Notes: generated from the sequence alone by a model not told the origin. A stretch of DNA of 64,000 nt from an uncultured Acetobacteraceae bacterium (GCA_964243265.1 CAXTFY010000001.1:15556-79555); one strand, 5' to 3'. Counted from the stretch's first letter, positions 7,952 through 53,700 are shown. Numbers and translations are program-made.

Positions 7952-7966
7952 TGTCGTGACGGCATG
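7952..7966 (+). promoter_or_regulatory. short form of the TGTCGTGAC box
   Basis: TGTCGTGAC-GGC-ATG is the 23-nt box without its central 11 nt. It lies in the immunity region, directly before ATG 7964. Confidence 0.35.
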
Positions 7967-8443
7967 GGTAATGGAGTCATTATGACGCAACGCCCCACCC
8001 GGCCGGAGTCTGAAGCCATGCGAAGCGGGCCTATCATTACGCCTTGGTTGGCCCGACCGACGCTGCTGCTGAACCAATCTAGGGGGATGCGCTGGTTCAA
8101 GCTGGGGCGACACAACCAGGGGTTAGGTTTCGAGGTTCGCGCCGCGACTAGGGATTGCCGGCCGGCGGCGCCTTTCGTGCGGGCTTTGCTGCGGGTGGTT
8201 CGCCCCTCGATCGGCACGCTGGACACTGACGGGCTGGTGGGCGGCTGCAAAGGCTTGATCGACTGCTTGTTGCCGCCGGGGGCGCCGCGGTGGGTGCCAG
8301 GCGGCCGGGGCCGGTGGGTGGTGCCGCCCCCCAACGGCTGCAGCGTCAAACCGAGAGGTTTGCCGGACATCATCCTGGATGACGGGCCGCATTACAGGGA
8401 ACGGAGGTGTCGGTATTCGACCTCGGGGACTTCTAAGGCATGA
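7964..8443 (+). CDS. possible RusA-like Holliday-junction resolvase
   Basis: Pattern 'ITPW..P..LLNQ..GMRW', then 'LDTDGLVGGCKGLIDCL', then 'ILDDGPHY', similar to the RusA D-x-D-N..K...D..L...LDD layout. ATG 7964 directly follows the short form of the TGTCGTGAC box. 7982 is an alternative start. Confidence 0.35.
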   Translation: MGNGVIMTQRPTRPESEAMRSGPIITPWLARPTLLLNQSRGMRWFKLGRHNQGLGFEVRAATRDCRPAAPFVRALLRVVRPSIGTLDTDGLVGGCKGLIDCLLPPGAPRWVPGGRGRWVVPPPNGCSVKPRGLPDIILDDGPHYRERRCRYSTSGTSKA

Positions 8444-8513
8444 AGTGTTTATGGCGCATTAAAGCGCGTTAAAAACACATGGAGGTGCGGAATCGGACAT
8501 AAAATGACTCGCT

Positions 8514-8542
8514 ATGACATGAAACGTACGTTTTCGTAACCA
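8514..8542 (+). promoter_or_regulatory. candidate rightward early promoter with operator palindrome in the spacer
   Basis: ATGACA-N17-TAACCA. The spacer holds the perfect 12-bp palindrome AAACGTACGTTT (8522-8533). About 24 nt upstream of ATG 8566, in the AT-richer switch region. Confidence 0.3.
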
Positions 8543-8565
8543 TTGCTTTTCATTGTAAGGGCACG

Positions 8566-12270: not shown

Positions 12271-12281
12271 AGGATTCCCCT

Positions 12282-12668: not shown

Positions 12669-12844
12669 CGGCTGCTGCGCACCCGACTTCACACGCCACG
12701 TCACACCGCACGGGCTGGTGATGCCGCAACATCTGCGTTGCGTTCCGCTTCCGGCACGGTTTAGGCTTGCGCCAGCTTCTTATGGAGTAGGGCCTTTGTT
12801 ATGACCTTGTCCGGCTAGACGGCTACCAGGCACCGGGGTTTTCA

Positions 12845-12880
12845 GGGCCGGCCCAACCAGGGGCCGGCCCTTTTGTTTGT
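12845..12880 (+). terminator. rho-independent terminator
   Basis: GGGCCGGCCC-AACCAG-GGGCCGGCCC (10-bp GC stem, 6-nt loop) followed by TTTTGTTTGT. Confidence 0.65.
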
Positions 12881-12914: not shown

Positions 12915-12936
12915 AGTCGTGACGGAACCCTAGTGG
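12915..12936 (+). promoter_or_regulatory. variant copy of the TGTCGTGAC box
   Basis: aGTCGTGACGgaACCCTaGtGG matches 17 of 22 positions of the box. It lies just after the terminator and 19 nt before ATG 12956. Confidence 0.4.
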
Positions 12937-12955
12937 CTCACCTAGCCCGGTTCCC

Positions 12956-13477
12956 ATGCGAATTTGCACGCCCATCGCCAAACCCCACTCTGAGGGCCTA
13001 GCCGACCCCCGCGCGCCCCGCTGCTGCCAGCGGTGCGGCGGGATCGAGCCATCCGTGCGCTTCACCCGGCTGGCCCGGACCATCTGCACGACCTGCCAGG
13101 CGATCATCAAGGCCGGCCGGGCGGCGCTTCGCACGCTGGCGCCGGCGCCAGTCCGCCGGGTCCGGGCGGAGGCGGGGCGGCATCCGCAACACCTGGCGTG
13201 GATACGCTCGCTGCCGTGCGCCGTTCGGTCGCCGCGGTGCGGTACGCTGATCCACGCCCATCACGTCCGCCTCGGCACTGGCGGCGGCATGGGCTTGAAG
13301 CCGTCCGATCGGCACACCGTCCCGCTTTGCCCTGCCCATCACCTGGAGCTGCACAACGGCGGCGCCCTGACGTTCGAGGCGCGGCATCGGGTCGTGCTGC
13401 TGACCTTTGCCGAGCTGCTGGCCAGCCGGTCCCCCTACCTGCAACCGAAAGATCCAGTTCATGCCAACGACTCCTGA
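12956..13477 (+). CDS. HNH/DUF968-like zinc-binding nuclease-family protein
   Basis: 'CQRCGG...CTTC' pair plus 'AHHVRLG...PSDRHTVPLCPAHHLELHNGG' (H-N-H-like). Confidence 0.5.
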   Translation: MRICTPIAKPHSEGLADPRAPRCCQRCGGIEPSVRFTRLARTICTTCQAIIKAGRAALRTLAPAPVRRVRAEAGRHPQHLAWIRSLPCAVRSPRCGTLIHAHHVRLGTGGGMGLKPSDRHTVPLCPAHHLELHNGGALTFEARHRVVLLTFAELLASRSPYLQPKDPVHANDS

Positions 13478-13826
13478 TCCTGTTGGCCCGCCGGCCCTGC
13501 TGGGTGCTTTGTCTGTCAGCGAAGGGATTCGTCACGTAGAGCCGCGGGCCGTTCTGGGTTCCTTGGCCGTGATCGAAGGCACACGCCGGGCGGCCTGCGC
13601 GACGGTCGAGCATCAGTTGTACTCCCGCGCGGTCGCCGTTTCTGTCGCTGCAAACATGGTGCGTCAAGCAACGGCGGCCGACCTCGCGGACGGGACGCTT
13701 CTGCGGCGCATCGAGGCGATGATGCCGCCTGCTGGCTGGGAGTGGGCGGTCTGGGCCTACGCCGATGGCGACATGACGGCCATTCCCAACCTTCTTGCCA
13801 AGAAAGCACATCCTGATGCGCCCTGA
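13461..13826 (+). CDS. hypothetical protein
   Basis: ORF 13407..13826 trimmed to ATG 13461. 121 aa. Confidence 0.45.
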   Translation: MPTTPDPVGPPALLGALSVSEGIRHVEPRAVLGSLAVIEGTRRAACATVEHQLYSRAVAVSVAANMVRQATAADLADGTLLRRIEAMMPPAGWEWAVWAYADGDMTAIPNLLAKKAHPDAP

Positions 13827-14751
13827 CCTCCTGCACGTCTTCATCCCGCGCGCGAACCCCCTGCAATGGGAGGTGCCGCAAGCCCTGCATGACGCGACGG
13901 TGTCGAGCTTGCTTGACCAGGGATTGACGGTGCACGTCATCGAGTGCGCCTACGGCGAGCGGCCGTTCCTCTGCGAGCGGCCCCACGTCCATCACGTCGG
14001 CGTTCGTGCGCGGACGATGATATGGAACAAGGAGTGCTTGATTAACCTGGGCGTCATGCGTGCGCCGGATGCGCAGTACATCGCCTGGGTTGATGGCGAC
14101 CTGGTGTTCCGCAACGACGGCTGGGCGGCGAACGCCGTGGACGCGCTGCAGCTCTATGACGTGATCCAGCCCTGGGGCACGGCGTTCGACATGGGGCCGG
14201 AGGACGAGTTGCTGACCGCCCATACCTCGTTTGCGAAGGTACTGCACGATGGCGGGCCGGTCGCACCGGGCGGGGAAAAGTGGTGGAAGGGGCAGGGCGG
14301 GCCGTACGTGTATCCGCACTCGGGCTATGCCTGGGCGATGACGCGCCGGGCCTGGGACGGCCTGGGCGGGCTTCTGGACATTGGCGGCATGGGGTCGGGT
14401 GACTTCCACATGGCGCAAGCCCTGGTTGGCGAAGCCGATTGCACGATGCCGGCTGGCACGACCGAGACGTACCGCCGCCACGTCAAGCGTTGGGAGGAGC
14501 GGGCGAAGCGGACGGTGGACGGCAACGTGGGCTACCTGCGCGATACAATAGAGCACGCCTTCCACGGGGCGAAGCCGAAGCGCAATTACATCGGCCGCTG
14601 GGATATGTTCGTCGCTCACCAGTTCTGTCCCGACGAGGACCTGGTGCGCAACGCGCACGGTGTTTACGAGCTGGCGCCCGGCAAGCCGGCGCTGCGCCGT
14701 GACTTCGACCGCTACCTGCGGGCGCGGTGCGAGGACGCCAACTCGCTGTGA
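13816..14751 (+). CDS. GT-A fold glycosyltransferase (family-2-like)
   Basis: DXD motif 'IAWVDGD' (about 14086-14100). 'HSGYAWAMTRRAW' and 'GSGDFHMA' are typical of nucleotide-diphospho-sugar transferases. Confidence 0.6.
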   Translation: MRPDLLHVFIPRANPLQWEVPQALHDATVSSLLDQGLTVHVIECAYGERPFLCERPHVHHVGVRARTMIWNKECLINLGVMRAPDAQYIAWVDGDLVFRNDGWAANAVDALQLYDVIQPWGTAFDMGPEDELLTAHTSFAKVLHDGGPVAPGGEKWWKGQGGPYVYPHSGYAWAMTRRAWDGLGGLLDIGGMGSGDFHMAQALVGEADCTMPAGTTETYRRHVKRWEERAKRTVDGNVGYLRDTIEHAFHGAKPKRNYIGRWDMFVAHQFCPDEDLVRNAHGVYELAPGKPALRRDFDRYLRARCEDANSL

Positions 14752-16936: not shown

Positions 16937-16958
16937 TGTCGTGACGCCACCCTGGCGG
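16937..16958 (+). promoter_or_regulatory. TGTCGTGAC box copy upstream of the endolysin gene
   Basis: TGTCGTGACGCCACCCTGGCGG, identical to the portal copy over 22 nt. ATG 16966 lies 7 nt further downstream. Confidence 0.5.
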
Positions 16959-16965
16959 GGAACCG

Positions 16966-19550: not shown

Positions 19551-19728
19551 CAAATACAAACGCTAGTCCAGCACACTAATTGTCACCAACAGAGACAAAC
19601 ACCGACGAACAATTACCAACTCGTTTGACTTGCATCCTGTTGTAATGCCTCACGGTTTCGTGTGGCTTGTAGGTCGCAAGTAGCCCATGTGGACAGGACA
19701 GTAAAACCCACCTGGCGGAGACCTCCCA

Positions 19729-20223
19729 TTGGCCGAATTGGTGATGATGGACTGCCCGACGCTTGCGCTTCGGTTGTCCACGGCTGGGTGTGGTCGGATG
19801 TTCACCGCGGCGCAAACCCGCGATGTGACGGCCTGGGATAGGAAGGCGGCGGCCTGCAAGTTCTGCCCGATCGGCGCCCGCAACGCCGGCGCCGTGGTGG
19901 AGCCGATGGCCAAGAGCCGCAGCGAGATGCGGCTGATCTGCCCGCGTTGCACGCGGCAATCGACCCGGCTGATTATGGGTCTGCACTGCATCTCTTGCTA
20001 CAACCGCGCGCGGGAGGCGCGGCTTGGCATCAACGCGAAAGGGACGCGGCCGGCGCTCTCTGACACGCTGCACACGGTCACGGTGGCGGTGCGCGAAGGC
20101 CTGGTTGCGGCGGTGCGGCAGTCGGGCACGGTCGCCGGCCGTCCGGAAGCGATCCTTGCCATGGCGAAGCGGGCGACGAGTACCATGGCGTTTTCCCTGG
20201 CGCCGCTGGGCTTCGCCTCGTGA
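19729..20223 (+). CDS. Cys-rich zinc-finger protein
   Basis: 164-aa ORF with several CxxC pairs (CKFCP, CPRC, CISC). GGAG 8 nt upstream of TTG 19729. Start uncertain (ATG 19744 is an alternative). Confidence 0.45.
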   Translation: MAELVMMDCPTLALRLSTAGCGRMFTAAQTRDVTAWDRKAAACKFCPIGARNAGAVVEPMAKSRSEMRLICPRCTRQSTRLIMGLHCISCYNRAREARLGINAKGTRPALSDTLHTVTVAVREGLVAAVRQSGTVAGRPEAILAMAKRATSTMAFSLAPLGFAS

Positions 20224-20534
20224 GCCTCACATGCGCGACGGCGTCGATCGCATTGGCGGCGGCGTCATCGGGGACGGCGTTCTACATCATCGACCACGCC
20301 TGCCGGCATTGCGGCGGCCGGGTGCTGCGGGCGGTGCAGGACGGCGACCAGTACCGGTGCGCCTCCTGCAAGGCGGTCACGATGGGCGGCCCGGCCGGGA
20401 TCTGCGGCTGTGGGCTGCTGCCGGGCAATCGCGCGGGGATGCGCCGGTTCCACTGCGGACCGAACCCGGATGAGGGTCCGAAGTCTCCAAGCGAGATCGC
20501 GCTTTTGTTCGGCGACCTGCCGGTGGCGGCATGA
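20220..20534 (+). CDS. zinc-ribbon protein
   Basis: GTGA overlap. 'CRHCGG...CASC' motif. Confidence 0.45.
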   Translation: MSLTCATASIALAAASSGTAFYIIDHACRHCGGRVLRAVQDGDQYRCASCKAVTMGGPAGICGCGLLPGNRAGMRRFHCGPNPDEGPKSPSEIALLFGDLPVAA

Positions 20535-20695
20535 TGGCGCTCCTCGCCCGGGCGGCGCTGGAGCTGCAAGGGGGCGTGCTGCTGGCGTGCGTTCGGCACG
20601 GCCTGGCGTGCGGCCTGGTGCGTGATGAGCTGGCGGGCCTGGTGTGCCGGGTGGCGCAAGAGGCGGGGCGCATTCTGGATGCGGTGGCGCCATGA
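20531..20695 (+). CDS. small hypothetical protein (54 aa, below ORF-track cutoff)
   Basis: ATGA overlaps at both ends link 20220..20534 to 20692..21042. Read by hand from the sequence. Confidence 0.3.
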   Translation: MMALLARAALELQGGVLLACVRHGLACGLVRDELAGLVCRVAQEAGRILDAVAP

Positions 20696-21042
20696 GCGGC
20701 ACCCGGCCAACGGGCTTGCGGCCCGGCGTGACAATCATGTGCGACCGCCGGCAGGTGTTCGGGGCTGATGGCAGGCTGATCCGGCTGTCGGCGGCAATGT
20801 ATGAGCTGCTGCTGGTGCTGGCGGAGGCGGACGGCCGCACCGTGTCGCGCGCCGACATTACCGACCGGTTGCAGCGCAACATGCAGCCACCCGCGGAGCG
20901 GCACATAGATCGGGTCGTGCACGAGCTGCGCCGGCGCTTGCCGCCGGACCTGATGGGACGGAGGTTGATCCAGACGGTCCATTCGGAGGGCTACTTCGTC
21001 CGGCCGGGCGTGGTGCAGCTCTACGGGCAGTCCTCATGCTGA
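20692..21042 (+). CDS. receiver-less OmpR/PhoB-type winged-helix DNA-binding protein
   Basis: 'RLSAAMYELLLVLAEADGRTVSRADI...HIDRVVHELRRRL...IQTVHSEGYFV' follows the Trans_reg_C pattern end to end. Confidence 0.65.
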   Translation: MSGTRPTGLRPGVTIMCDRRQVFGADGRLIRLSAAMYELLLVLAEADGRTVSRADITDRLQRNMQPPAERHIDRVVHELRRRLPPDLMGRRLIQTVHSEGYFVRPGVVQLYGQSSC

Positions 21043-21350
21043 TCTGCGGCCCCATCGTCATCCACCCGGAGCGGCGGCAGGTCTTCACGCTGCATGGCAA
21101 GCCGATCCCGCTAAGCGGCGCCTTGCTGAATGCGCTGCTGCACCTGGCGGCGGCTGACGGCCAGGTTGTGAGCCGGCTGGAGTTGTCGGCCGCGGCGCTG
21201 GTCGGCGGCATGGAGGCCGGCGAACGCACCCTCGACACCTTGATCTGCGGCTTGCGGCGCCGCCTGCCGCTGACCGACGAGGGGCAACGGGTCGTGCTGA
21301 CGATCCGCAACGTCGGCTATTGGATGAAGGCGCCGGTGCGGCTGCCATGA
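21036..21350 (+). CDS. second receiver-less OmpR/PhoB-type winged-helix protein
   Basis: 'PLSGALLNALLHLAAADGQVVSRLEL...LDTLICGLRRRL...LTIRNVGYWM' has the same Trans_reg_C layout. 7-nt overlap with the first. Confidence 0.6.
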   Translation: MLICGPIVIHPERRQVFTLHGKPIPLSGALLNALLHLAAADGQVVSRLELSAAALVGGMEAGERTLDTLICGLRRRLPLTDEGQRVVLTIRNVGYWMKAPVRLP

Positions 21351-21679
21351 TCGCGCTTCTCGGATCGAGCGTCTGCACGGTTATCTTGCTTTGCACCATT
21401 GCTGGCATCCTGGTGGTCCGGTGGCTGTTGCTGCTCGGCTGGCTCCATCTGTCCGCAAAGCGGAGAGACACCGGCAAATTGGTTGTTTTCGGCCAGAACC
21501 AGTCGAAGGCCTTGCTGCTTGCCGCAACGATCCTGCTGCTCCTCGTCACCGGGCTGGTCAGCGGGCTTGCGGGGATCGAGGTTGGCTGGTTCGGCGGCCA
21601 GGTGAACGCTGGTATCTCCGGGACACCGTTGTTTCGGGTGCACCTCGGGGAACCATCGGCGTGCGGGGTCGCGCGATGA
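21347..21679 (+). CDS. small multi-TM membrane protein
   Basis: ATGA overlap. Hydrophobic segments (LLGSSVCTVILLCTIAGILVV, ALLLAATILLLLVTGLV). Confidence 0.45.
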   Translation: MIALLGSSVCTVILLCTIAGILVVRWLLLLGWLHLSAKRRDTGKLVVFGQNQSKALLLAATILLLLVTGLVSGLAGIEVGWFGGQVNAGISGTPLFRVHLGEPSACGVAR

Positions 21680-22777: not shown

Positions 22778-23004
22778 CGACCCACCCGGCCCGCCGGCGG
22801 CTGCAGGTCAACGCCCTGCATAGCGTGCTGCTGGTGGTGTTGGCCGTCATGGTGGTGTGGACGCTGATCCGCGGCACCTCCGTCAAGGTGAGCTTCGGGC
22901 CGCCGAAGGCGCCGGCGCCGGCGCTGTATTGCGCGAAGGACCCATGGCTTGCGGGGCCGGAGTTCATCCCCTGCCGCGACCGGCGAGACGCGCCGTGGAC
23001 ATGA
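22774..23004 (+). CDS. small membrane protein
   Basis: ATGA overlap. 'VLLVVLAVMVVWTLI' TM segment. 76 aa. Confidence 0.4.
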   Translation: MTTHPARRRLQVNALHSVLLVVLAVMVVWTLIRGTSVKVSFGPPKAPAPALYCAKDPWLAGPEFIPCRDRRDAPWT

Positions 23005-23558: not shown

Positions 23559-23561
23559 CGC

Positions 23562-28448: not shown

Positions 28449-28471
28449 TGTCGTGACGCCACCCTGGCGGC
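28449..28471 (+). promoter_or_regulatory. TGTCGTGAC box ending at the portal ATG
   Basis: TGTCGTGACGCCACCCTGGCGGC occupies positions -23 to -1 relative to ATG 28472. No Shine-Dalgarno is visible. Confidence 0.55.
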
Positions 28472-36922: not shown

Positions 36923-36970
36923 GCTAGGATGCCTTGCTGCCGGGGCACCATCGCCGCCGGCGTATTACTT

Positions 36971-36984: not shown

Positions 36985-37012
36985 ATAATACCGCAACAGG
37001 TATCGAACCAAC

Positions 37013-38227: not shown

Positions 38228-38250
38228 TGTCGTGACACGATGCTGGCGGC
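38228..38250 (+). promoter_or_regulatory. TGTCGTGAC box ending at ATG 38251
   Basis: TGTCGTGACACGATGCTGGCGGC at -23 to -1. The middle part differs here and forms TCGTG-A-CACGA. Confidence 0.5.
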
Positions 38251-41974: not shown

Positions 41975-41997
41975 TGTCGTGACGCCAGGCTGGGCGC
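41975..41997 (+). promoter_or_regulatory. TGTCGTGAC box ending at ATG 41998
   Basis: TGTCGTGACGCCAGGCTGGGCGC at -23 to -1. Confidence 0.5.
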
Positions 41998-43290: not shown

Positions 43291-44216
43291 GCGTCCTGTT
43301 CTTCAAAGCGATCATCCGCGGCGGCGCCCATGCCGACTTGTTCGCAACCCCCGTCACCGTCGCCGGGCACACGACGGCCGCGGGCACCTACGTCGCCCCA
43401 TACACCTCGATCAGGCACAAGGCGCCGGCCCCCCTGGTCGCCGACCTGCCGGACCTGCATCCGGAGCCGGAGCCGGAGGCGGAACCCTGCATCTTCTGCG
43501 GCGAGCCGGAGCGCGTGTCCGTGCACGAGGCATGGGGCCATGACTTCATGCTGGACTGCTGCTGCGAGGCCCGGCGTGACTTCGCGGTGCAAGAGATGGC
43601 CGAAGATCCGGACTATGCGCGCCAGCTCCTGGAGGCAAGCGGCGTCGGCCCGCTGCGCCGGGTGGCATTCACCGATGAGGGGTTCGGCCAGGTGCTCCTG
43701 GACTTCGAGCCACGCATTGCGCCGATCAGCCGCGCCGACGCCAACGCCTTCATCGGCCGATGGCACCGGCACAACCCGCCGCTGCCGGCGGACCTGTTCC
43801 GCGCGGGCGTCTGGAATGGGTCAACCCTGCTCGGCGTCGTCATGGCCGGTGCCCCGACGGCCCGGGCCTATATGCCGCAGTTCGCCGCGCGGGAGCTGTG
43901 CGAGGTGCGCCGGCTGTGCATCCGCACCGACCTGCCGCGTGAGCTGACCTGGCGGGCAGCCTCGGCGCTGTACGGCTATGCGGCGGAGCAGGCGGCAGCC
44001 CGCGGGTATCGCAAGATCATCACCTACACCCTCGCCTCGGAAGCGGGGATGAGCCTGCGCTACGCGCGCTGGAAGCCGGAAGCCACAATCCGCGGCAAGA
44101 CCTGGAATACGCCGAGCCGGCCGCGCCAGGACCGCGGCCCGGTCGAGGCCAAGGTCCGTTGGTTCAAGAAGCTCTCGCCGGCGCCGGTGACGCTGATGCT
44201 GCGCACGGCGGCCTGA
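43287..44216 (+). CDS. ILFLKA-module protein with GNAT-like (XF1762-family-like) domain
   Basis: TTG start in a TTGA overlap. 'VLFFKAIIRGGAHADLF..VTVAGHTTAAGTYVAPY'. Cys cluster 'CIFCG...DCCCE'. 'RWHRHNPP...LLGVVMAGAPTAR...EVRRLC...GYRKIITYTL..EAGMSLRYARW...KVRW'. Confidence 0.55.
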   Translation: MSVLFFKAIIRGGAHADLFATPVTVAGHTTAAGTYVAPYTSIRHKAPAPLVADLPDLHPEPEPEAEPCIFCGEPERVSVHEAWGHDFMLDCCCEARRDFAVQEMAEDPDYARQLLEASGVGPLRRVAFTDEGFGQVLLDFEPRIAPISRADANAFIGRWHRHNPPLPADLFRAGVWNGSTLLGVVMAGAPTARAYMPQFAARELCEVRRLCIRTDLPRELTWRAASALYGYAAEQAAARGYRKIITYTLASEAGMSLRYARWKPEATIRGKTWNTPSRPRQDRGPVEAKVRWFKKLSPAPVTLMLRTAA

Positions 44217-44231
44217 TCGAAGCCCTCCGGC

Positions 44232-44254
44232 TGTCGTGATGCCAGGCTGGGGCC
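44232..44254 (+). promoter_or_regulatory. TGTCGTGAT box ending at ATG 44255
   Basis: TGTCGTGATGCCAGGCTGGGGCC at -23 to -1. Confidence 0.5.
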
Positions 44255-47200
44255 ATGCTCCAGCACCCGCCCGTCGTCCTGTTTCTCAAGGCCACCATCC
44301 CGGGCGGTGCAGGCGACCTGTTCGCGCTGCCGGTCCAGGTTGCGGGCTACACGACACCTGACGGCACCTATGTTGCCCCGCACACGGCCATCCGGCACAA
44401 GCGGACCACCCTCCCGGCCGCCGCGCCAAAGGCCGCAGCGGTGGACCTGTTCGCCCATGCCGATGCGGCTGCTGCCCCCCCCAAGCCTGCGGGCAAAGCC
44501 AAGCCCAAGGCTGACACGGGGCCGGACCTTTTCAGCGCCATCTTGCACCCACCGGCGCCTGCCAAGCCTGCCAGCGAAGTTGCGGCCGCAACCGCAAAGC
44601 CGCCCGCGGTAGTAGAGTCCACACCCGCCTCCGGTCCGGCAGGGCTACGCACGGCAGCCGTTGGCGACGTGCTGGAAATCGACCTGCCTTACAAGAGCCG
44701 GTCGGTGCGCGCCCGGGTGCGGGTGGTCGAGCCGACATACCGGGATCACCGGGGCAGCGTCGTCCTGCTTGAGAAGCCGCCCCGCACGACGCTGGAGGTC
44801 GGCCGGACGCACCACGTCGATCAAGCCGTGGTCAATGCTGGGACGCTGCTTTCCGTCACCCCCGCCCTCACGGCTGCCGAGCTGGCGCAAGTTGCGTCGG
44901 CGGTCGCGCCAGCCCCCGCCCCGGCGCAAGCTGCGCCGGTCGGCGCACCTGCGGAGCTGGCAACCTTCGGGGTCGAGGCCGGGATCTCCGAGCCTGCCCG
45001 TCGCGCCCTGAATGCCGCCGCTGTCGCGGTGCTGACCAGCAAGCCCGATGCGGACATGACGGACGGCGACCGCGCGGTGCTGGCGCGCTACAGCGGCACC
45101 GGGGGATGCGGTGCCAGTCGCAACGAGTTCTACACCACGCCGGCGATCGCCCGGGCGATGTGGAGTCTGTTGGACCGCGCCGGGTTCCACGGCGGCGAGG
45201 TCTTGGAGCCGAGCTGCGGCACCGGCGTCTTCTTGCACACCGCGCCCCCTGGCGCGCATGTCGTCGGCGTCGAGATGGACCCGATCGGCGCCCGGATCTC
45301 CGGTATCCTGCACCGCCCGGCCGGGCATGAGGTCAATGCCGGAACGCTGGAAGCCTTCGCGCAAGGCGATGGGCGCCTGTTTGATGCGGTGATCGGCAAC
45401 CCGCCCTTCGGCATCCGCGGCGGCTCGGCCGGCGACGACAAAAAGAGCATTGCCAGCGCCGAGGACTATTTCCTCGATACCGCGCTGGACAAGCTCCGGA
45501 GTGGCGGCCTTCTAGCCATGATCGTGCCAACTGGCGTCATGGACGGCAAGGCCGGGCGCGGCTTCCGCGAGGCCCTGCTGTGCAAGGGGGAGTTCCTTGG
45601 TGGGTCGCGTTTGCCAAACACCGCATTCGAGGCGTCGCATACCGCTGTGACGTCCGACGTGCTGCTGTTCCGCCGGCGTCCGCAAGAGGTCGCCGGCGCG
45701 CTGTCAACCGTGGATCAGGACGTGCTGCAGCAGCTCGGCGTATGGGATGAGGAGTTCTTGTCCGGGTCCTATTTCGTCGCCGGCCGCGGCGCCGCCAACA
45801 TCCACGGCAACTTGGAACCCGGGTGGCGCGAAAAAGCCAACATGGGCCACGACATCACGGTGTCTGGTTCGATGGTGGGTGTGCCCGACGCCGTGCGTGA
45901 CATGCCGATCGAGGCGCCGGCGCCGTCTCCGGACATGGCAACCGTGCTCGCAGCCCTCGGCGACGACGATACGGCCAAGCGTCGGGCGGTCTCGGCCGCG
46001 CTGCGCCCTCCCTATCAAGTGGCCAAGCTCGGCGACGTGCAAACCGTGGACGGCATCCGGTACGTCCTGCAAGGCGAGCCGCCGCGGTGGCACCGCGCCG
46101 ACGAGGACCTGCCGCCGGCGGTCGCCGACGCGCTCGGCATCGCCGAGGTGCTGGAGGACCTGCACGAGGGCCGCGCGGCTGACCCGGCGATGGCCCGCGC
46201 GGGCCTGATCGAGGATCTTGACGCCTACGTGGGCAAGCACGGCACGCCAGGCCGCAGCAAAGCCCTGCGCGCCTGGCTCGCCAAGCCCTCTATGCCCAAC
46301 CTGGACGGGGTCGGCGGCAACGAGCACGGCGAGCGCGTCAACAGTGCCTACCGTCGCGTTGCGCGGCTGCTGGGCGCCGTCGGCGACGATGGCGGCTACT
46401 CCGACCTCGTGACCGGCGTGACCCGCCAGGCGGACGCGGCAAGCCTGGATACGATGGCCACCCGCCTGTCCCTCGAACGCGGCGGCTTCACCGCCGAACA
46501 GCTCGCCGCGGTCACGGGGGGGACAGCCGACCAGGTGCTAGACCACCTGTTCGCGTCCCCGGCCTACGCGGTCGAGCCGGACGGCCGCACTTGGAGCACG
46601 TTGGACTCCTACGTGTCCGGCGCCCTGTGGCCGAAGTTCGATGCCGCCACCGAAGCGGCGGCGACGCCCGGCGCCGACCCGGCGCTGGTGGCGAAGTGGG
46701 CCAGCCAAGCCGCGGTGCTGGACGCGGCGATCGCGCCGGCCTCGCTGGAGGACGTGGAGATCGCGCTCAACAGCGGCTTCATCCAGCCGGCGGTCATCAA
46801 TGCCTGGTTCCAAGCCCAGGAGGAGGCGCGTCGCGCCAAGCAGGGCAGGTATGGCCCGCAGTTCAACGTGGCCGAGCTGGAATACAAGGACGCGCTGTGG
46901 TCGGCCAAGGACGGCCGCGGCGTCAACGTCGGCGACACCCGGCTGATCCTCACCTTCCTCAACCGGACCGGCGTGCGCAAGGTGGACCGCGCAAAGCTGG
47001 TGCGGCTGAATGCGGAGTTTGCCGATTGGGTGCGCGGCTCGGACCTGCGGCAGTCCGTCGAGGACGGGTATAACCGCACCCACAAGGGTTTCATTGCGCC
47101 GGTGTTCTCCGACAAGCCCATTGACATACCCGGTCTAAACCCGCCATTCTCGGTTAATAATTACCACTGGTCGGGCCTTCGCTGGGCAATGCAGGCGGGC

Positions 47201-50200
47201 AGCGGCATTGTTGCCGATGATGTCGGGTTGGGCAAAACGCCTCGTGGCCTGATGCTTTCTAAACTTATGCAATCGACCGGTCAGGCGAAAAAGCCGGTTA
47301 TTGTCGTTCCGAAGTCGGTACTGGCGAATTGGGTCAAGGAAGCCGAGCAATGGTTCCCTGGCGCGAAAATCCTGGTCATCGGCGAAACCTACAAGACGGA
47401 CAAGGCCGGCAACGTTACCTCGAAGTCTGACGATGCCGAGACGCGGCAGGAGAAGTTCCACAACCTCCAACAAAACAGCCATGACTTCGTTTTCATCTCG
47501 CAACCCGCGTGGAACGAGCTGGACGTTAGCCCGGACCTCAAGGCGGGCTACCAGAGCGACGATTTCTGGACCCAACGTGGCGAAGCCATGGCCAACGCCA
47601 AGGCCTCCAAGATCGAGCGCGCCCGCGCGGCCGATGAACAGCGCGTTGCGGTCAAGGAGTTCGAGAGCCGGGAAGGCACGGTTTACTTTGACGAGTTGGG
47701 CATAGACGCGCTCATCATGGACGAGGGCCACGCCTATAAAAACCTGTATTCTGCCCGTGCTCGGTTCGGCGAAAAGCCGAAGTTCCTGGGCGGCTCCGGC
47801 GAAAGCAACCGGGCACAAGATACCTACTACAAGACCCGGGCATTGCGGTCCAAAAACGGCGGCAAGGGCGTTTTCATGCTGACGGCCACGCCCACGAAAA
47901 ACTCGCCGTTGGAAATTTACTCGATGCTGGCGCAGATCGCGCCGGAGGCCTTCGAGAAAATGGGCATCCGCAACTCGGAAGCCTTCCTAGACCGGTTCTG
48001 CGAGTTCTCGATGGACATGGTGCCGACCATTGATGGCGGCGTGGACGAGGAGCTAGTGACCAGCGGCTTCAAGAATTTGGACGAGCTGCGGGAGGTGATG
48101 AAGCGATACATCGACCGGCGGACCGCGGCTGACGTGGGCCTGGTGATCCCCAAGGGGCTGCCGGTCGATCACTACGTCGATATGTCCCCGGCGCAAGAGG
48201 AAGCCTACCAGGAGTTGCGGGCGCAGTACGCGGCCGTCGCCGACGGCACCGCCGACGCCACCGGCGAAAGCCATATCTTCTCGATCATGAATCGCATGGG
48301 CAAGGCGTCGCTGGACCTGTCCCTGCTTGACCCGTCCTACCATGGCGAGCGTGCGCCGAAGGTCGATGCCTGCGTTGATGCGGCGATCGAGCACGCCGGC
48401 GACGGCGGCCAGATCATCTTCTGCGACGCCAACGACATGCACGAGCGGATTGCCGCCTCCCTGGTCGCCCGCGGCGTGCCGCGCAACCGCATCGGCATCA
48501 TCAACGCGACGGCCGCCGAAGGGTCGGCCGCACGGCAGAAAATCTGCGACCAGTTCAACTCGGGCAAATTGGGCTACGTGATCGGCAACACGGCGACGAT
48601 GGGCGAGGGCGTGAACCTGCAAAAGGGCACCTCGGACATCCATCACCTCGATCTGCCATGGGAGCCGGCGTCCATGCACCAGCGCAACGGCCGCGGGGTC
48701 CGGCAGGGCAACAAGAAGGGCAGCGTGCGCCTGCATACCTACCTCGCCAAGGGCAGCTTCGACGGCTACCGCCTCGCCACGATGATGGCGAAAAAGGACT
48801 GGCAGGACTTGCTGTGGAACGGTGGCGACAAGGTCGAGAACCTGTCCCGCTCCGGCGCAAACTCCCGCTCGGAAGTGCTGATTATGATGTCCGCCAACCC
48901 GGACGAAGCCCGCAAGGCGTATGATGCGAACAAGTCAGCCGCGGTGGAGCGCCGGCGTGCCGAGGATCGCGGCCAGGCGATCGCGGCATTCGACCGCTTC
49001 GATAAGATGGGCCGCGCGCTGGCGAAGCTGCGCGCGGAGCAGGACCCCTTGAAGGTGCAGGCGGGCGCGATCGCGCGCCTGGAAAAGAAGCGGCAGGTGC
49101 TTCATGGCGCGCTGCGCGACCTGCCGGCCTTCACGCATAAGGATCTGCTGGACCATCCGCACCCGGCCGTCATCGAGCCGGTGACAAACCATGCGTGGAC
49201 GCGCGGGCGCGGCCTCGTGCTGCACGGCGGCAGCGAGGGGCCGGCCAACTGGAGCGAGGACGAGTCGCGCTGGGTGGTCACGGGCGTCGATGCCGACGCC
49301 GGCACGGTGTCGGTGCGGGGCTACGGCGGCAACTCGCACTCCGACCGGCCCACCCTGGACTTCGATCTAAAGGACATGAAGGCGGGCGTGACCCCATTCG
49401 ACTACAGCGAGAAGGCCGAAAAGGCGGAGGTCGCCGACGCCGACACGGCGTACCGCACCATGGTCGGACAGCGGACGGCCGCCAAGATGGCCAACCCCAA
49501 CGGGCTGGGGCTGGTCGAGATGCGCGACCTGCCGCCCGACGTGCTGGCCAACCAGGCGGACCTGGTGCGTAGCCACATGCGCCTGCAGATCGAGCGTTAC
49601 CGGGACGGGCACAGCCAAGTCTATGGCCTGACCAACCACGAAGGCCGGCCGGTGGCGGCGCAGAGTTTCGAGGTGCGCAAGCTGCTCGGCGACCACGACC
49701 TGATCCTGCCGACGCCGGACGGCCGCGCCAAGGCAGTCGAGGGCTATGTCGATGCCGCCATGCGGCGCGGCGTCGTCACGCCGACCCAAACCGGCACGCG
49801 GATGCGCAGCTACAACGGCGCCAGCATGAGCACGGCCATCAAGCCAACCTATGAAGGGTTCGAGCACAGCACCAGCACCAGCGGCAATCCCTGGGAACAC
49901 GTCATCAAGGACGTGTTCGGGGAAGACGCGACCGCCGCGCAAGCCGCCGTGCGGGAGGAGGTCAAGCGGCGCATCGACTCTGCGCCGACCTTCCGGGATG
50001 CCGTGATCGCTGCGACAAAAGGGGTGGAGGTGCCGGCCTATGGCTGGGGCACCACCAGCAAGGGCAACCCGTGGCCGGCCGACGTCGTGCGCAGCCTAGC
50101 GGCCCGGGCGGCGAAGGATAAGGTGCTGGATTGGGACATGCACAAGGCGGCCAAGCCGTCGCAAAGCAGCTACAAGCCGGACCTGCATCCGGAGCTGTTG

Positions 50201-50329
50201 AAGCACGGCGGGGTCAACTACGCTGCGGATATGTCGCAATACGGCAATAGCCGCTCGCACCGGGTCCGTGACTTCCTGGAAGCCATCTCACATCCGGCGG
50301 ACAAAGCCGCCCTGAAAGCGGCCCCCTGA
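44255..50329 (+). CDS. 2024-aa DarB-like polyvalent protein: ILFLKA module plus N6-adenine methyltransferase plus SNF2-type helicase
   Basis: Methylase motif I 'LEPSCGTGVFL' and motif IV 'GNPPFG' (about 45200-45412). SNF2 motifs 'DDVGLGKT' (about 47215), 'MDEGHAYKN' (about 47720), 'LTATPTKNSPLE', and helicase-C 'GEGVNLQ...HHLDLPWEPASMHQRNGRGVRQGN'. Confidence 0.85.
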   Translation: MLQHPPVVLFLKATIPGGAGDLFALPVQVAGYTTPDGTYVAPHTAIRHKRTTLPAAAPKAAAVDLFAHADAAAAPPKPAGKAKPKADTGPDLFSAILHPPAPAKPASEVAAATAKPPAVVESTPASGPAGLRTAAVGDVLEIDLPYKSRSVRARVRVVEPTYRDHRGSVVLLEKPPRTTLEVGRTHHVDQAVVNAGTLLSVTPALTAAELAQVASAVAPAPAPAQAAPVGAPAELATFGVEAGISEPARRALNAAAVAVLTSKPDADMTDGDRAVLARYSGTGGCGASRNEFYTTPAIARAMWSLLDRAGFHGGEVLEPSCGTGVFLHTAPPGAHVVGVEMDPIGARISGILHRPAGHEVNAGTLEAFAQGDGRLFDAVIGNPPFGIRGGSAGDDKKSIASAEDYFLDTALDKLRSGGLLAMIVPTGVMDGKAGRGFREALLCKGEFLGGSRLPNTAFEASHTAVTSDVLLFRRRPQEVAGALSTVDQDVLQQLGVWDEEFLSGSYFVAGRGAANIHGNLEPGWREKANMGHDITVSGSMVGVPDAVRDMPIEAPAPSPDMATVLAALGDDDTAKRRAVSAALRPPYQVAKLGDVQTVDGIRYVLQGEPPRWHRADEDLPPAVADALGIAEVLEDLHEGRAADPAMARAGLIEDLDAYVGKHGTPGRSKALRAWLAKPSMPNLDGVGGNEHGERVNSAYRRVARLLGAVGDDGGYSDLVTGVTRQADAASLDTMATRLSLERGGFTAEQLAAVTGGTADQVLDHLFASPAYAVEPDGRTWSTLDSYVSGALWPKFDAATEAAATPGADPALVAKWASQAAVLDAAIAPASLEDVEIALNSGFIQPAVINAWFQAQEEARRAKQGRYGPQFNVAELEYKDALWSAKDGRGVNVGDTRLILTFLNRTGVRKVDRAKLVRLNAEFADWVRGSDLRQSVEDGYNRTHKGFIAPVFSDKPIDIPGLNPPFSVNNYHWSGLRWAMQAGSGIVADDVGLGKTPRGLMLSKLMQSTGQAKKPVIVVPKSVLANWVKEAEQWFPGAKILVIGETYKTDKAGNVTSKSDDAETRQEKFHNLQQNSHDFVFISQPAWNELDVSPDLKAGYQSDDFWTQRGEAMANAKASKIERARAADEQRVAVKEFESREGTVYFDELGIDALIMDEGHAYKNLYSARARFGEKPKFLGGSGESNRAQDTYYKTRALRSKNGGKGVFMLTATPTKNSPLEIYSMLAQIAPEAFEKMGIRNSEAFLDRFCEFSMDMVPTIDGGVDEELVTSGFKNLDELREVMKRYIDRRTAADVGLVIPKGLPVDHYVDMSPAQEEAYQELRAQYAAVADGTADATGESHIFSIMNRMGKASLDLSLLDPSYHGERAPKVDACVDAAIEHAGDGGQIIFCDANDMHERIAASLVARGVPRNRIGIINATAAEGSAARQKICDQFNSGKLGYVIGNTATMGEGVNLQKGTSDIHHLDLPWEPASMHQRNGRGVRQGNKKGSVRLHTYLAKGSFDGYRLATMMAKKDWQDLLWNGGDKVENLSRSGANSRSEVLIMMSANPDEARKAYDANKSAAVERRRAEDRGQAIAAFDRFDKMGRALAKLRAEQDPLKVQAGAIARLEKKRQVLHGALRDLPAFTHKDLLDHPHPAVIEPVTNHAWTRGRGLVLHGGSEGPANWSEDESRWVVTGVDADAGTVSVRGYGGNSHSDRPTLDFDLKDMKAGVTPFDYSEKAEKAEVADADTAYRTMVGQRTAAKMANPNGLGLVEMRDLPPDVLANQADLVRSHMRLQIERYRDGHSQVYGLTNHEGRPVAAQSFEVRKLLGDHDLILPTPDGRAKAVEGYVDAAMRRGVVTPTQTGTRMRSYNGASMSTAIKPTYEGFEHSTSTSGNPWEHVIKDVFGEDATAAQAAVREEVKRRIDSAPTFRDAVIAATKGVEVPAYGWGTTSKGNPWPADVVRSLAARAAKDKVLDWDMHKAAKPSQSSYKPDLHPELLKHGGVNYAADMSQYGNSRSHRVRDFLEAISHPADKAALKAAP

Positions 50330-50658
50330 TGCCAGCGATCGACATGGCCAAGACGCTGAACACCGTGCTGCACCAGCTCCAGGGCGACCCCATCCGCTAC
50401 CGGCTGTTCGGCATCTACTGGTGGCCGGTCAAGCTCCTGCTCAAGCGCGCCGGCTACGGCCGTCACCAGCTTTACCTGCTTGGCGACTACCAGGACGCGG
50501 GCACGGCTGACCTGGTGCCGCGCATGAACCTGCAAGACACGATGACGGCTGCGTTGGAGGAGTTCCGCCGCAACGCCATCTTCCCGCACGCCGGCGGCAT
50601 GGTCGAAAGCCCGGACGGCGAAATGGTCCGCCTGTTCGATCAGGATGCCGGCATGTAG
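50329..50658 (+). CDS. hypothetical protein
   Basis: TGATG junction with the 2024-aa gene. 109 aa. Confidence 0.5.
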   Translation: MPAIDMAKTLNTVLHQLQGDPIRYRLFGIYWWPVKLLLKRAGYGRHQLYLLGDYQDAGTADLVPRMNLQDTMTAALEEFRRNAIFPHAGGMVESPDGEMVRLFDQDAGM

Positions 50659-50705
50659 CGAGGAATTGCCGACGTTTGGCTAAAGGCCGAGCACGGTGCT
50701 CCTGT

Positions 50706-50728
50706 TGTCGTGACGCCACCCTGGCGCC
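50706..50728 (+). promoter_or_regulatory. TGTCGTGAC box ending at ATG 50729
   Basis: TGTCGTGACGCCACCCTGGCGCC at -23 to -1. Confidence 0.5.
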
Positions 50729-53700
50729 ATGCCCTTCTCGTCGCGCATCCTGTTCCTGGCGTCCACGGCGCCGCTCGGCAAGGCGCTGGCGGCCGGCGAA
50801 CGCTGGATAACCGTCCGTCCCAACGGCCCCGGCACCCAGGGCCACCCCCTGCTGATCAAGCCGGCCGGCGATGGGTCGATGAAAGTCATCGGCGGCGCCG
50901 GCGGCAGCTTGAACCATCTGCGGCTGACCGGAGTAAAATCCGAGGACGCCTACAAAGAGGAAGCCCGGCAGCGCAGCAAGAGCCACAAGGAAGCCCGCAA
51001 GCGACAGGTCGAGGGCGACAAGGCACTTGGCCTGCATGGGACCAAGACGGTTGCACGGGAGGCGGTGAAGGAACAGCTCCGCAATCACGAGCGCGCGTTC
51101 GTGAAAACGGTCGGGGAGGCGTTGGGCTGGAAGCCGGAGGCGATGCGCTTCCCGTCGGAGGCATTCGCCAACGCGACGCCGGAGGCACAGGACCAGGCGG
51201 CCAAAGAGCACGGCCGCAAGCTGTTCGAGCACGCGCGGGCGGCCGTCGATCACCAGCGGCAACGCCTGGTGCAAGATGCCGAGCTGCGGGCCGAGGCTGG
51301 GCTAGGCGAGGTGCCACTAACGGCCGCGGCGCCGGAGGACCTGACGGTACAGGATCTCTCGCCGGTGGACGACGCGACAAAGGGCCTGGGGTTCGCGCCG
51401 GAGTATGACAAGCGCGCCGAAGCGGCGGGCCTGACGCCGGAGGAGCGCCAGGAGGAAGCGGCGACCTTCAAGCCGGCGCCAGTCAAGCCGCCGGCCGAGG
51501 GCGAACCGACGCCGGAGGAGCGCCGCAGGGCCAAGGGCGAGGCGATCACCAAGGAGCTGGAGGCCATCCGCGAGCCTGGCCCGAAGGTGGACCGGCACGC
51601 CGTCGTGGATGCAAAGAAGGCGGTCGAGCTGCTGCGCGCCGAAAAGGCGCTGAAAGCCGCCCGGAAGTCAGCCGCGGGGCACAACAAGGCGATCGACGCC
51701 GCGAAGGAGCAGGTGGAGCCGGCCGCCTATCCCGTGGAGGTTGGCGGTGCGGCGCCGGACAGCGCGATCACGGCCGAGCTGGAAGGCGACCTACGCACCC
51801 TGAAGACGCGCGCTTTCCTTGATGAGGTCGGCAAGGTGTCGGGCGGGGAAGCATTGGGCCGGCACATCGGGGTCGGGGCCTACAACAGCATCAACGCCCT
51901 GGCGCTCGCCGCCGGCGGCGCGGCCCTGATGGACCGGTCCGCGGTGGACGTGCTGGGCATCGCCGGCAGCGCGCAAGTGCTGGCCCGGCGCCTGGCATCC
52001 GACCTGACGCCGGAGGAGCTGCAGCACACCCAGGAAGCGATGGCCAGCTTCCATCTGGACCACTACATGCCGGCGTCGGACAAGGCGCTACGGGAGGCCC
52101 GTAGCTGGCACGAAATGGCGCAGGAGATCGAGCTAGGCGAAGCCGCCTCCGGCGCTGACCTGGCCGTGGCCCAGGAATTGAACGCCAAACGGCGGGAGTT
52201 CACCGCCGCGGCCGAGCGCACGTTGGGCACGGCGCTCGGCGAGATGGAAGCGAACGCCGCGCTGGTGCTGGCGCTGAAGCAGCCGAAAAAGGAACAGGTG
52301 CAGGTCAGTCTGGGCAAGGTCAGCATCGAGTCCGCGATCACCAGGTTGCGCGCCCTGGGGTTGGAGCGGGGTGAATACTCCCTCGAAAAGGTCGGGGTTA
52401 GCACCATGCTGGTGGTCGGCGGTGCCGGCATGGATCGCCTGGCGCAGCCGATCGCGCGGGAGGACCTGGCGCGGGTGCGTGACAGCCTGGACATCATCGA
52501 GGGGCGCCGGGACGAAGCCGACTGGCTGCCGGACGGCGTCGCCCGGCGGCCGGAGGGGGCCATGAACGTGGTGCCGGGCACCGCCGCGCGCCTGGCGCAG
52601 CCCTACCAGGCCGGGTCCGGCCCGGATGGCACCCGGCGGGCGGTGGAGGACTACATCGGCGGGCGCGCGGCCGACGGGGACAGCCCGGCGGAGATCGTGG
52701 CCTCGCTGCTGTCCGAGGAGACGCTGAAGGCCAGCGGCGACCGCCGCGGCTTCATGGCGGCCGTGGACAGCCTGGCGCCGCTGTATGACGGGGAGGGCAA
52801 GATCGTCCGAGCCGAGGCGCACACGGCCACCTTCGAGCGGCTCGCGGACGCATTCACGCAGCGGCGGTATGGCGGCAAGCTCGCCCCGATCCACAAGCAA
52901 GTGTTTCCCGTGGATCAAACGGCGGTCAACAGCCTCCATGCCGCCCTGGCCAAGCACCCCGAGGGGGTCGCCGCCTTCAAGCCGATCGCCGACCTGACGC
53001 CGCAGGACCAGGGCAGCCTGCGGGCCGCCTTCGGCGAGGAGTTCGGCCGCTCGGACCCGGCAGCCGAGGCGATGCGGGCGGAGCTGGACAAGCTGGCGGC
53101 CAGCGAACCCGCCCGGGAGGTGTCGGATATGTTCGGAACGGGACCAAACCCGTTGCACACCGACTGGCGCGCGAACCGGGACGGGCTGGCCGAAAAGCTG
53201 AATGCGGCCTCGATGACGTGGGGCAAGTACTGCGAGGTCTTGGGCAGCCCGGCGAACGCCTACCGGGCGATGCAGGACGTGGTGCGCAGCAAGGTGCTGC
53301 GGGAGTTCGCCGACGGCCAGAACCGCGCCAGCCCGGACGCCGCCCTGAAGGTGGGCCGGACAGTCATCGCGCACGACCTGAACCACCTCGATGCGCTGGA
53401 CCCGGTCGCGCGGGAAAAGCGCCTGGCGGCGCACCGGGCGCTGGCGGACAGTCTGCGCAACCGGGTGGCGGGGCAGTACTCCGCCGGGTCGGTGTCGGAC
53501 AAGTTGGACGCCGAACGTGCTCACGAGGAAGCGTTCGGGCAAAGTCAGATGGGGCTGTTCGGCGCCAGCTCGCCGCCGGACGCGGCCGATGATGCGGCGC
53601 CGGAGCCTGCCAAGCCGCCGGCACTCGGCGAACGCTATACCATCGGCCACCAGGCGGAGCGCCAGGTCGCCGGCATGATGCCGATTGTCGGGAGCAACTT

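Follow-up and report, generated by a model that had tools for sequence, protein, structure and literature searches.

The late promoters of phage P1 are activated by the phage protein Lpa (gp10) together with the host protein SspA. The P1 record annotates 11 of them, ten of which comprise a AAGTGACTT-like box, four unspecified bases (N4) and a TAnnnT hexamer with no -35 element (the spacer in LPhot is 9 nt). The late promoters of phage T4 (TATAAATA), which employ gp55, gp33 and gp45, also consist of a single -10-centred element without a -35 and serve late genes only; this 8-bp element is read by a phage sigma factor, and T4 late mRNAs have leaders. Here we analyze a box that recurs upstream of phage genes in 64,000 nucleotides (nt) of DNA from an uncultured Acetobacteraceae bacterium (GCA_964243265.1, CAXTFY010000001.1:15556-79555; this whole 64-kb stretch is referred to as the window). 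Residues are numbered relative to the predicted transcription start, such that the box, GTCGTGAY, spans positions -22 to -15 and is followed by two bases and a hexamer, nAnnnT, at -12 to -7. The element probably represents the late-gene promoter class of one little-studied clade of temperate tailed phages, at which host RNA polymerase would be guided by a phage factor that reads the box. A literature search found no published description of the motif, nor of transcription signals for this phage clade.

The architecture of the element bears comparison with P1, as its -10 hexamer directly follows a conserved 8-9-bp box, a -35 is lacking, and the element is repeated before late operons. GTGAC occurs within both boxes, and here too the phage appears to be a roughly 90-kb temperate myovirus with DarB and Ulx anti-restriction genes. 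However, the P1 box is a 9-bp palindrome (AAGTnACTT) located at -25 to -17 with a 4-bp spacer, whereas the box described here is asymmetric, lies at -22 to -15 and has a 2-bp spacer, and P1 late leaders are roughly 15-50 nt long, whereas most mRNAs in the window would be leaderless. The DarB-like protein is the only window protein that matches P1, and no Lpa homologue was detected among the window proteins (BLASTP of P1 Lpa, E >=0.78), with hhalign giving 0.05% probability against the cysteine-rich family considered below. In our reading the window element would work like a P1 late promoter yet fall outside that family. It also differs from the T4 system, as no gp55-like or gp33-like protein was found in the window.

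In phage Lalka27a, a sister of the Thermus phage Lalka27b, 16 putative late promoters with a TAGGGT motif have been described, and all late promoters but one combine the TAGGGT -10 with a C at -25; 5' ends lie 6 nt downstream of the -10 for half of them, and most transcripts are leaderless (bioRxiv 10.64898/2026.04.20.719267). Lalka27a encodes neither an RNA polymerase nor a sigma factor, and its authors inferred that a phage factor alters the specificity of host RNA polymerase (bioRxiv 10.64898/2026.04.20.719267). In the window as in Lalka27a, the putative late promoters are densely distributed, have a distinctive -10 and lack a -35, and terminators are few; the window further resembles Lalka27b in its related portal (37.7% identity) and its DarB-like and Ulx-like genes; in Lalka27b, TAGGGT-N6-7-ATG precedes the portal and DarB-like genes. 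The signals themselves are nevertheless different, as that of Lalka27a comprises TAGGGT and a single C(-25) and lacks a TCGTGAY box, with 0 matches to the window pattern in 34 kb of Lalka27b. The design, a phage late promoter built of a -10 and an adjacent specific box, would be known in kind.

The element in the window and in related phages

Both strands of the window, which has a G+C content of about 68%, were searched for the degenerate 23-mer TGTCGTGAYGCCASSCTGGSGSC with up to three mismatches. Six matches were obtained, all on the + strand, and there were none in 100 shuffles of the window. A position weight matrix (PWM) built from these six strong sites scores them at 32-36 bits; the site at 12915 is next with 9.9 bits, and the rest score 8 bits or less on either strand. 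The search, and the gap that separates the six sites from noise, bear out the six near-identical, intergenic, + strand 23-nt boxes proposed in the first-pass annotation of this DNA, and no similar-scoring matches are scattered through the window or present on its other strand. The stop codon of the preceding open reading frame (ORF) lies 4-53 nt before each strong box, and reading of the flanks confirmed that five boxes occupy positions -23 to -1 of an ATG (at 28472, 38251, 41998, 44255 and 50729). When a 17-nt PWM trained on other phages only was used, exactly seven window sites scored 20 bits or more, consisting of the six strong copies (20.0-23.7 bits) and 12915 (20.2 bits). All seven are intergenic and on the + strand, after which scores drop to noise. 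A(-11) and T(-7) are present in 7/7 window copies, even though the originally proposed motif did not require them.

By this score, the copy at 12915, previously presented as a 17/22 variant, is a full member of the set, and a syntenic copy is found at position 3427 of L063, a 64%-identity relative. The box lies ~45 nt past a strong terminator and ~18 nt before the ATG at 12956 of a DUF968/HNH-like gene (Pfam DUF968). The terminator (12844-12871) is the strongest intrinsic one in the window, with an 11-bp stem containing 10 G-C pairs followed by TTTTGTTTGT, and its position ~45 nt ahead of the box marks an operon boundary; very few other terminators occur in the late region of the window, as is also the case in Lalka27a. 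The box at 16937, which had been placed 7 nt before the endolysin ATG, is real and has a syntenic copy at L063 7288, but the conserved start of the gene is probably the second ATG, at 16978, as the comparison with L063 reveals a conserved MLPFAGAA start. With a +1 near 16960, the leader would be 18 nt rather than 6 nt long and would contain GAGG 6 nt before ATG 16978. Orthologues of the portal box precede the portal genes of loci L045-L051, L058, L059 and L063 and of phages PHB04, Dolphis and ECML-606-1. In PHB04 the orthologue of the 2024-residue DarB-like gene has a box with a 24-nt leader, and that of the 1538-residue helicase gene has one 7 nt before its ATG. The coordinates of the window features are collected in Table 1.

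Table 1. Putative promoter boxes and genes considered as box readers in the window (aa, amino acids)
Feature	Coordinates	Strand	Remarks
Putative promoter box, variant copy	12915..12937	+	AGTCGTGAC-GG-AACCCT-AGTGGC
Putative promoter box before muramidase (endolysin) gene	16937..16959	+	gene: Pfam Muramidase + PG_binding_1
Putative promoter box at -1 of portal ATG 28472	28449..28471	+	hexamer CACCCT at 28460-28465
Putative promoter box at -1 of InPase-like gene (38251-38790, PF18823)	38228..38250	+	hexamer GATGCT
Putative promoter box at -1 of 430-aa gene (41998-43290)	41975..41997	+	hexamer CAGGCT
Putative promoter box at -1 of 2024-aa DarB-like methylase/SNF2-helicase gene (44255-50329)	44232..44254	+	hexamer CAGGCT, T at -15
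Putative promoter box at -1 of 1538-aa helicase gene (50729-55345)	50706..50728	+	hexamer CACCCT
Doubtful copy, not counted as member	7952..7974	+	TGTCGTGAC-GG-CATGGG
Cysteine-rich protein, candidate specificity factor	19744..20223	+	159 aa, 7 invariant Cys
Zn-ribbon protein, second candidate by context	20220..20534	+	104 aa, always adjoins the Cys-rich gene
Two Trans_reg_C (OmpR-type winged helix-turn-helix) genes, candidates of the first-pass annotation	20644..21350	+	Pfam

The exact 19-mer core yields scattered single matches only in IMG/VR, GTDB genomes and JGI metagenomes (the GTDB count was judged by hand estimate to be about chance level), and megablast of 20 kb of the window against phage records returned no match. 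Because the exact core, and with it the 23-nt form, is largely confined to this genome and its closest kin, proteins were used to find relatives. One of the single matches, L001 7461-7486 (IMGVR_UViG_3300044825_001479), contains the exact 19-mer, CTGG and then ATG, reproducing the full 23-nt geometry, and no further box-like copy is present in the 14 kb of this locus that were examined. Three myoviruses of about 90-95 kb, Aeromonas phage ST4, Bordetella phage PHB04 and Pseudomonas phage Dolphis, have portals that are 54% identical to that of the window, and Thermus phage portals are 37-42% identical to it. In the IMG/VR relatives, the DNA upstream of the portal ATG, which was located by protein homology and not by the motif, contains GTCGTGAY, two bases, a hexamer, 5-7 bases and the ATG. 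In the hexamers (TACCCT, TACCTT, CACAAT, GACGAT and CACTAT) the second base is always A and the sixth always T, while the other four vary, and the same pattern is found elsewhere in those contigs too. In L063, boxes occupy syntenic spots before the DUF968, muramidase and portal genes.

The regular expression TCGTGAY-N2-nAnnnT has 7 matches in the 64 kb of the window, 16 in the 94 kb of PHB04, 9 in the 76 kb of Dolphis and 6 in the 41.5 kb of the E. coli phage ECML-606-1, compared with 1.3 per 100 kb in unrelated bacterial loci (304 kb searched) and 0-1 in P1, which was searched as two halves of its genome. In the complete PHB04 genome the slightly wider pattern TCGTGA[CTA]-N2-nAnnnT gives 17 matches, of which 15 lie on the late-gene strand and 15 directly upstream of independently annotated coding sequence (CDS) starts or their in-frame extensions. 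The genes concerned include those for the portal, holin, DarB-like protein and helicase, genes of the baseplate region, genes just before the tail-sheath gene and the gene before the terminase. Ten PHB04 matches, including a GTGAA variant at 49339, place T(-7) 6-7 nt before the ATG, and in the remaining copies a leader of roughly 18-30 nt precedes the gene, in some cases containing AAAGGAG or GGAGG. Dolphis has boxes before the portal, gp6, protease, gp14, baseplate and lysis genes. In ECML-606-1 (56% G+C), four of the five gene-proximal copies lie 22-24 nt before the ATG with AAAGG or GGTGG in between, and only one copy is leaderless. The search of relatives that the first-pass annotation had proposed thus showed that the element recurs in PHB04, Dolphis, ECML-606-1 and about 40 uncultured contigs, all found via protein homology.

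To describe the anatomy of the element, a logo was computed from 64 distinct sites. Outside the positions fixed by the regular expression, it features G(-22) in 56/64 sites, G(-14) in 52/64, C(-12) in 42/64 and A or C at -8, while position -15 is C in 50/64 sites (78%) and T in 14/64. The functional core comprises 16 bp, G(-22)TCGTGAY(-15) G(-14) S(-13), then usually C(-12)A(-11)nnM(-8)T(-7), as judged from these alignments. Conservation ends at -7, the ATG itself aside, and positions -51 to -23 carry at most 0.15 bit each in the 64 sites, with no -35 or UP element and no TTGACA-like element 16-18 bp before the hexamer. A scan for sigma-70-type consensus promoters gave none in 6-26 kb or 44-64 kb of the window and a single one, on the - strand, in 26-46 kb. 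The gap between box and hexamer appears to be fixed at 2 bp, as 100 of 236 TCGTGAY cores have nAnnnT at exactly this distance, with only 4-14 at spacers of 0, 1 and 3-6. The asymmetric box seems to occur in one orientation only; GTCGTGAY-N2-nAnnnT is found 87 times, the form with its central GT reversed (GTCACGAY) twice and other central variants 0-3 times. An ATG or GTG that opens an ORF of at least 50 codons' worth of residues (>=50 aa) follows T(-7) by 5-7 nt in 33 of 68 matches from 411 kb (by 6 nt in 22 and by 7 nt in 10), and about half of all copies (32 of the 68 sites) have the ATG at a distance of 6 or 7 nt from T(-7).

The promoter reading and its alternatives

A(-11) and T(-7), which alone are invariant outside the upstream box, are the bases captured by region 2 of sigma-70-family factors in promoter melting and the hallmark of a -10 hexamer of this family; initiation by RNA polymerase usually takes place about 7 nt past T(-7). 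We infer that the hexamer is read as the -10 of a sigma-70-family holoenzyme, most likely that of the host, and that transcription starts 7 nt after T(-7), a position that would coincide with the A of the ATG in five window copies. A start at this adenine would render the five mRNAs leaderless, so that no Shine-Dalgarno sequence would be needed; leaderless mRNAs are thought to be uncommon in proteobacterial hosts. For the 12915 and 16937 copies, leaders of about 18 nt are predicted. It is very probable that the element is a promoter with its start at or next to the ATG, as the ATG lies at the start position where the box abuts the gene and an SD-like (Shine-Dalgarno-like) leader is present otherwise, a pattern that a promoter would produce and a translation or processing signal would not.

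An alternative is that the box acts in the RNA, as a processing site, a ribosome-loading site or translation enhancer, or a small hairpin at the 5' end of the cistron. The box does abut the ATG in five copies, no Shine-Dalgarno sequence fits within its 23 nt, and a 5-bp stem is possible in three window copies. However, this CGCCA/TGGCG stem, which the first-pass annotation described as often formed, is complete in only 3/7 window copies and 4/80 copies in relatives, and no conserved RNA fold is evident. The invariant A(-11) and T(-7) do not follow a pairing pattern, and Rfam has 0 matches at gathering score in the whole window. Moreover, several PHB04 copies, like those of ECML-606-1, are separated from the ATG by 22-30 nt that include an SD-like sequence, and the element of ECML-606-1, at 22-24 nt, argues for a promoter and against a translation signal. 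An RNA-level role is consequently highly improbable, and the processing or translation-initiation signal suggested earlier finds no support.

The same annotation had also considered a phage-specific promoter giving leaderless mRNAs, and this is the option we favour, though not in the single-subunit polymerase form that was envisaged. If a single-subunit or other non-canonical phage RNA polymerase read the element, the 23-nt length of the stretch conserved in the window would be in keeping with T7-type promoters. In the family as a whole, though, conservation stops short of the start site, at -7, whereas T7-type promoters extend from -17 to +6. The large window ORFs encode the DarB-like protein, helicase, terminase, a portal-adjacent polyprotein and a carbohydrate-binding-like protein, with no polymerase domain, and this explanation is extremely improbable. 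More generally, Pfam and PHROGs scans of most of the larger window ORFs revealed no polymerase or sigma domain, and the annotation of PHB04, like that of the part of the Dolphis record that was read, lists neither a polymerase nor a sigma factor.

These scans also bear on the idea that a phage sigma factor, located outside the window or too divergent to be recognized, reads the 16-bp element as one extended -10 in the manner of T4 gp55 and TATAAATA. A single, one-sided element with a rigid 2-bp link and no -35 would be in keeping with this idea, and about 24 kb of the source contig lie outside the window. Against it, beyond the negative scans and annotations just described, the cysteine-rich candidate discussed below has no sigma-like fold, and the hexamers appear, by impression, to be host-matched (CACAAT, GACAAT and TAGAAT in PHB04 and the E. 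coli phage vs CACCCT and CAGGCT in the window). A phage sigma factor is therefore very unlikely.

A further possibility is that the primary-sigma holoenzyme of the host reads the whole element unaided, as an unusually long extended -10 promoter in which sigma region 3 or the beta-prime zipper would engage GTCGTGAYG. The element does resemble extended -10 (TGn) sigma-70 promoters in lacking a -35, in having bases upstream of the hexamer that compensate and in its conserved G(-14) (81% of sites), and the hexamer keeps A(-11) and T(-7). In addition, the surfaces of RNA polymerase and sigma are conserved across the host classes involved, and no recognizable regulator is common to all members. Several observations speak against it, however. 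Position -15 is mostly C, rather than the T of TGn promoters, so that most sites lack the T(-15)G(-14) of an extended -10, and conservation reaches 5-6 bp further upstream, to -22, making the element far more specific. The box is no more frequent in unrelated bacterial DNA than expected by chance. Finally, PHB04 and Dolphis encode integrases, and at least 15 unaided lysis and virion promoters would be active in the lysogen, while the authors of the Lalka27a study inferred a phage factor that modifies host RNA polymerase (bioRxiv 10.64898/2026.04.20.719267). Recognition by the host enzyme alone is unlikely.

On balance, these considerations lean towards a phage factor being needed. The presence of integrases in PHB04 and Dolphis means that a dozen or more lysis and virion promoters must be off in the lysogen, which favours positive control. 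In the proposed mechanism, the clade-specific promoter would drive late genes for virion, lysis and virion-packaged anti-restriction proteins, the GTCGTGAY box would replace the absent -35 contact, and a phage-encoded late factor would read the box, leaving the promoters silent until the factor is made, as with Lpa at P1 late promoters. The activator site that was among the first suggestions would stand in this modified form, with a phage factor probably reading GTCGTGAY.

Several points weigh against this late-promoter reading. The start site in this clade is placed by geometry, and the C at -12 and the G/C-rich hexamers (e.g. CACCCT) constitute weak -10 elements. The reader of the box is a candidate, as its link to the motif is occurrence in the same clade; this cysteine-rich protein has no detectable DNA-binding or sigma-like fold, and 8 of the 33 loci that encode it have no match to the regular expression. 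The window covers 64 kb of a contig of ~88 kb, and a sigma factor or regulator could lie in the other ~24 kb. Lastly, the similarity among the copies at 41975, 44232 and 50706 could stem from duplication of a promoter together with the N-terminal module described below.

If the late-promoter reading is true, the 16-bp promoter would be common to phages that infect beta- and gamma-proteobacteria and a high-GC host, and many late mRNAs would be leaderless in Bordetella and Pseudomonas hosts. Its placement would be precise enough for leaderless late mRNAs in proteobacterial hosts, and the E. coli member, which has the same promoter with SD leaders, offers a natural comparison for the host dependence of leaderless translation. 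GTCGTGAY-N2-nAnnnT provides a ready promoter model for the whole temperate-myovirus clade, which includes Phabquatrovirus PHB04, Dolphis, Jeremy, Touem01, ST4, ECML-606-1, phiT5282EW, fHe-Yen8-01, Mecenats66 and many uncultured relatives. It also suggests corrected start codons for deposited annotations and a late-transcription factor to be sought, in three cultured phage-host pairs. Should the promoter be off until the phage factor is supplied, as is probable, its compact 16 bp could serve as an orthogonal expression part.

Candidate readers of the box

By genomic context, the best candidate for the factor is the cysteine-rich protein encoded at 19744-20223, although this assignment is tentative. 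Its cysteines follow the pattern CxxCPIGA ... CPRC-x12-CISCYNR, and its gene heads an operon, being the first after an AT-richer, box-free gap of 190 nt. Among 50,697 phage records the protein occurs in 10, which are exactly those of this clade, and it is present in PHB04, Dolphis and L063. Of the 33 IMG/VR loci that encode it, 25 carry the box; in the 504 kb of these loci the regular expression has 56 matches, 52 of which are on the strand of the gene. Variant boxes (TAGTGA and others) were sought in the 8 remaining loci, with nothing convincing found. The AlphaFold (AF2) model of the protein has a mean predicted local distance difference test (pLDDT) score of 88, but neither a PDB fold nor a sequence-profile match was obtained and Pfam and PHROGs were uninformative; tblastn detected no homologue in Thermus phage records.

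The adjoining Zn-ribbon protein, which shows weak Zn-ribbon Pfam matches both in the window and in its PHB04 orthologue and is conserved in PHB04, Dolphis and L063, possibly acts together with the cysteine-rich protein. A possible, though speculative, arrangement is that a small Zn-binding protein without a known fold docks on the holoenzyme, reads the asymmetric 8-bp box and replaces the contact between sigma region 4 and the -35; if so, this would be a hitherto undescribed means by which a phage redirects the RNA polymerase of its host. The gap before the cysteine-rich gene (19551-19743) is AT-richer and has no box, and GTAATGC within it is common to the window and L063. The matching gap in Dolphis (L070, ~65875-66730) is ~850 nt long and contains several GGTAACC(GG)-like repeats. 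These gaps have the appearance of a control region for genes of an earlier temporal class.

Other regulators were considered as well. The two OmpR-type Trans_reg_C proteins favoured by the first-pass annotation are poor candidates: none is present among the seven small syntenic PHB04 genes that were scanned, yet PHB04 has 16-17 motifs, and tblastn with both proteins returned no homologue in PHB04 or in portal-related contigs. L063 has one of the two. An AraC-family regulator is common to PHB04 and Dolphis and is not in the window. A gene for a MarR-type winged-helix protein (26316-26831; PF12802, E = 4e-8) immediately follows that of the large terminase, and tblastn found no homologue of this protein in PHB04 or the IMG/VR relatives.

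Genes behind the boxes and neighbouring features

The genes that follow the seven boxes encode DUF968/HNH-like, muramidase, portal, InPase-like, 430-residue, DarB-like methylase/SNF2 helicase and DEAD-box helicase proteins. These had been described as unrelated to one another, which does not hold for the proteins starting at 41998 and 44255, as they share an N-terminal module of ~50 residues (M..VLFLKA.I.GGA..DLFA.PV.VAG.T..G.YVAP...R.K) with each other and with the box-less gene starting at 43287 (57% and 49% identity). The module spans 41998-42150, 43287-43440 and 44255-44410, in the consecutive 430-residue protein, 309-residue Mom-like protein and 2024-residue DarB-like protein, and is also matched in L045, L048, L058 and L059. 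As a leader sequence, it may direct packaged anti-restriction cargo to the virion. The accompanying claim that gene duplication does not explain the boxes is supported in so far as 43287 has the module without a box, which indicates that duplication of a gene start would not by itself account for the box, and is weakened by the similarity among three copies noted above.

The region 43287-55345 constitutes a Dar-like anti-restriction block with genes for the Mom-like protein (PF25680, PHROG 1384), the DarB-like N6-methylase and SNF2 helicase, a Ulx-like protein (109 residues, PHROG 1629) and the DEAD-box helicase. The methylase, small protein and helicase genes are syntenic with PHB04 26262-32555, 25939-26265 and 21098-25654, respectively. 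Upstream, the portal gene is translationally coupled to that of a 1304-residue protein (30273-34187) with a weak RelA/SpoT match that is below the Pfam cut-off (PF04607, E = 9.5e-4), and PHB04 has a separate annotated (p)ppGpp synthetase/hydrolase gene a few genes past its portal. No transfer RNA genes were found in the window.

The short form at 7952, which the first-pass annotation included among the copies, scores at noise level with the PWM from other phages (13.8 bits, compared with a mean of 13.6 for shuffle maxima) and has no T at -7; TGTCGTGAY alone is expected 0.78 times per window by chance. With the ATG chosen in that annotation, the box would sit at -10 to -4, which is the wrong geometry, and the RusA-like label given to the downstream ORF (7982-8443) has no Pfam support. 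The copy lies in the gap between this + strand ORF, which matches PHROG 34026 only, and a - strand ORF (6991-7857) of 288 residues that has GGAGG before its ATG and, by eye, a helix-turn-helix-like segment with no Pfam match. Read on the - strand, the 7952 box is GTCACGAC-AG-GACAAT, containing a -10-like hexamer at the correct spacing with the box centre reversed; boxes with a reversed centre occur in the family at background frequency (2 vs 87).

A palindrome at 36962-36990, CTTGTGAC-AG-GTCACGAAT, lies in the gap that separates a - strand ORF (36686-36922) from the + strand gene at 37013. In sequence, the arms are similar to the core of the box (TCGTGAC on the - strand), and AATAAT and AGTAAT hexamers are positioned 8 nt off each side. 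The palindrome may be a divergent regulatory site, although its layout departs from the 2-nt geometry; in PHB04, a canonical box accompanies the orthologue of the 37013 gene.

The geometry of the box also suggests revised starts in deposited genomes. In PHB04 (MF663786), CDS 13152-13967 would start at 13976 and CDS 59258-59449 at 59527, both as in-frame extensions, and in Dolphis (MT711888) gp15, annotated from 14482, would have an upstream ATG at 14320, while the start of gp25 would be 23688 and not 23748.

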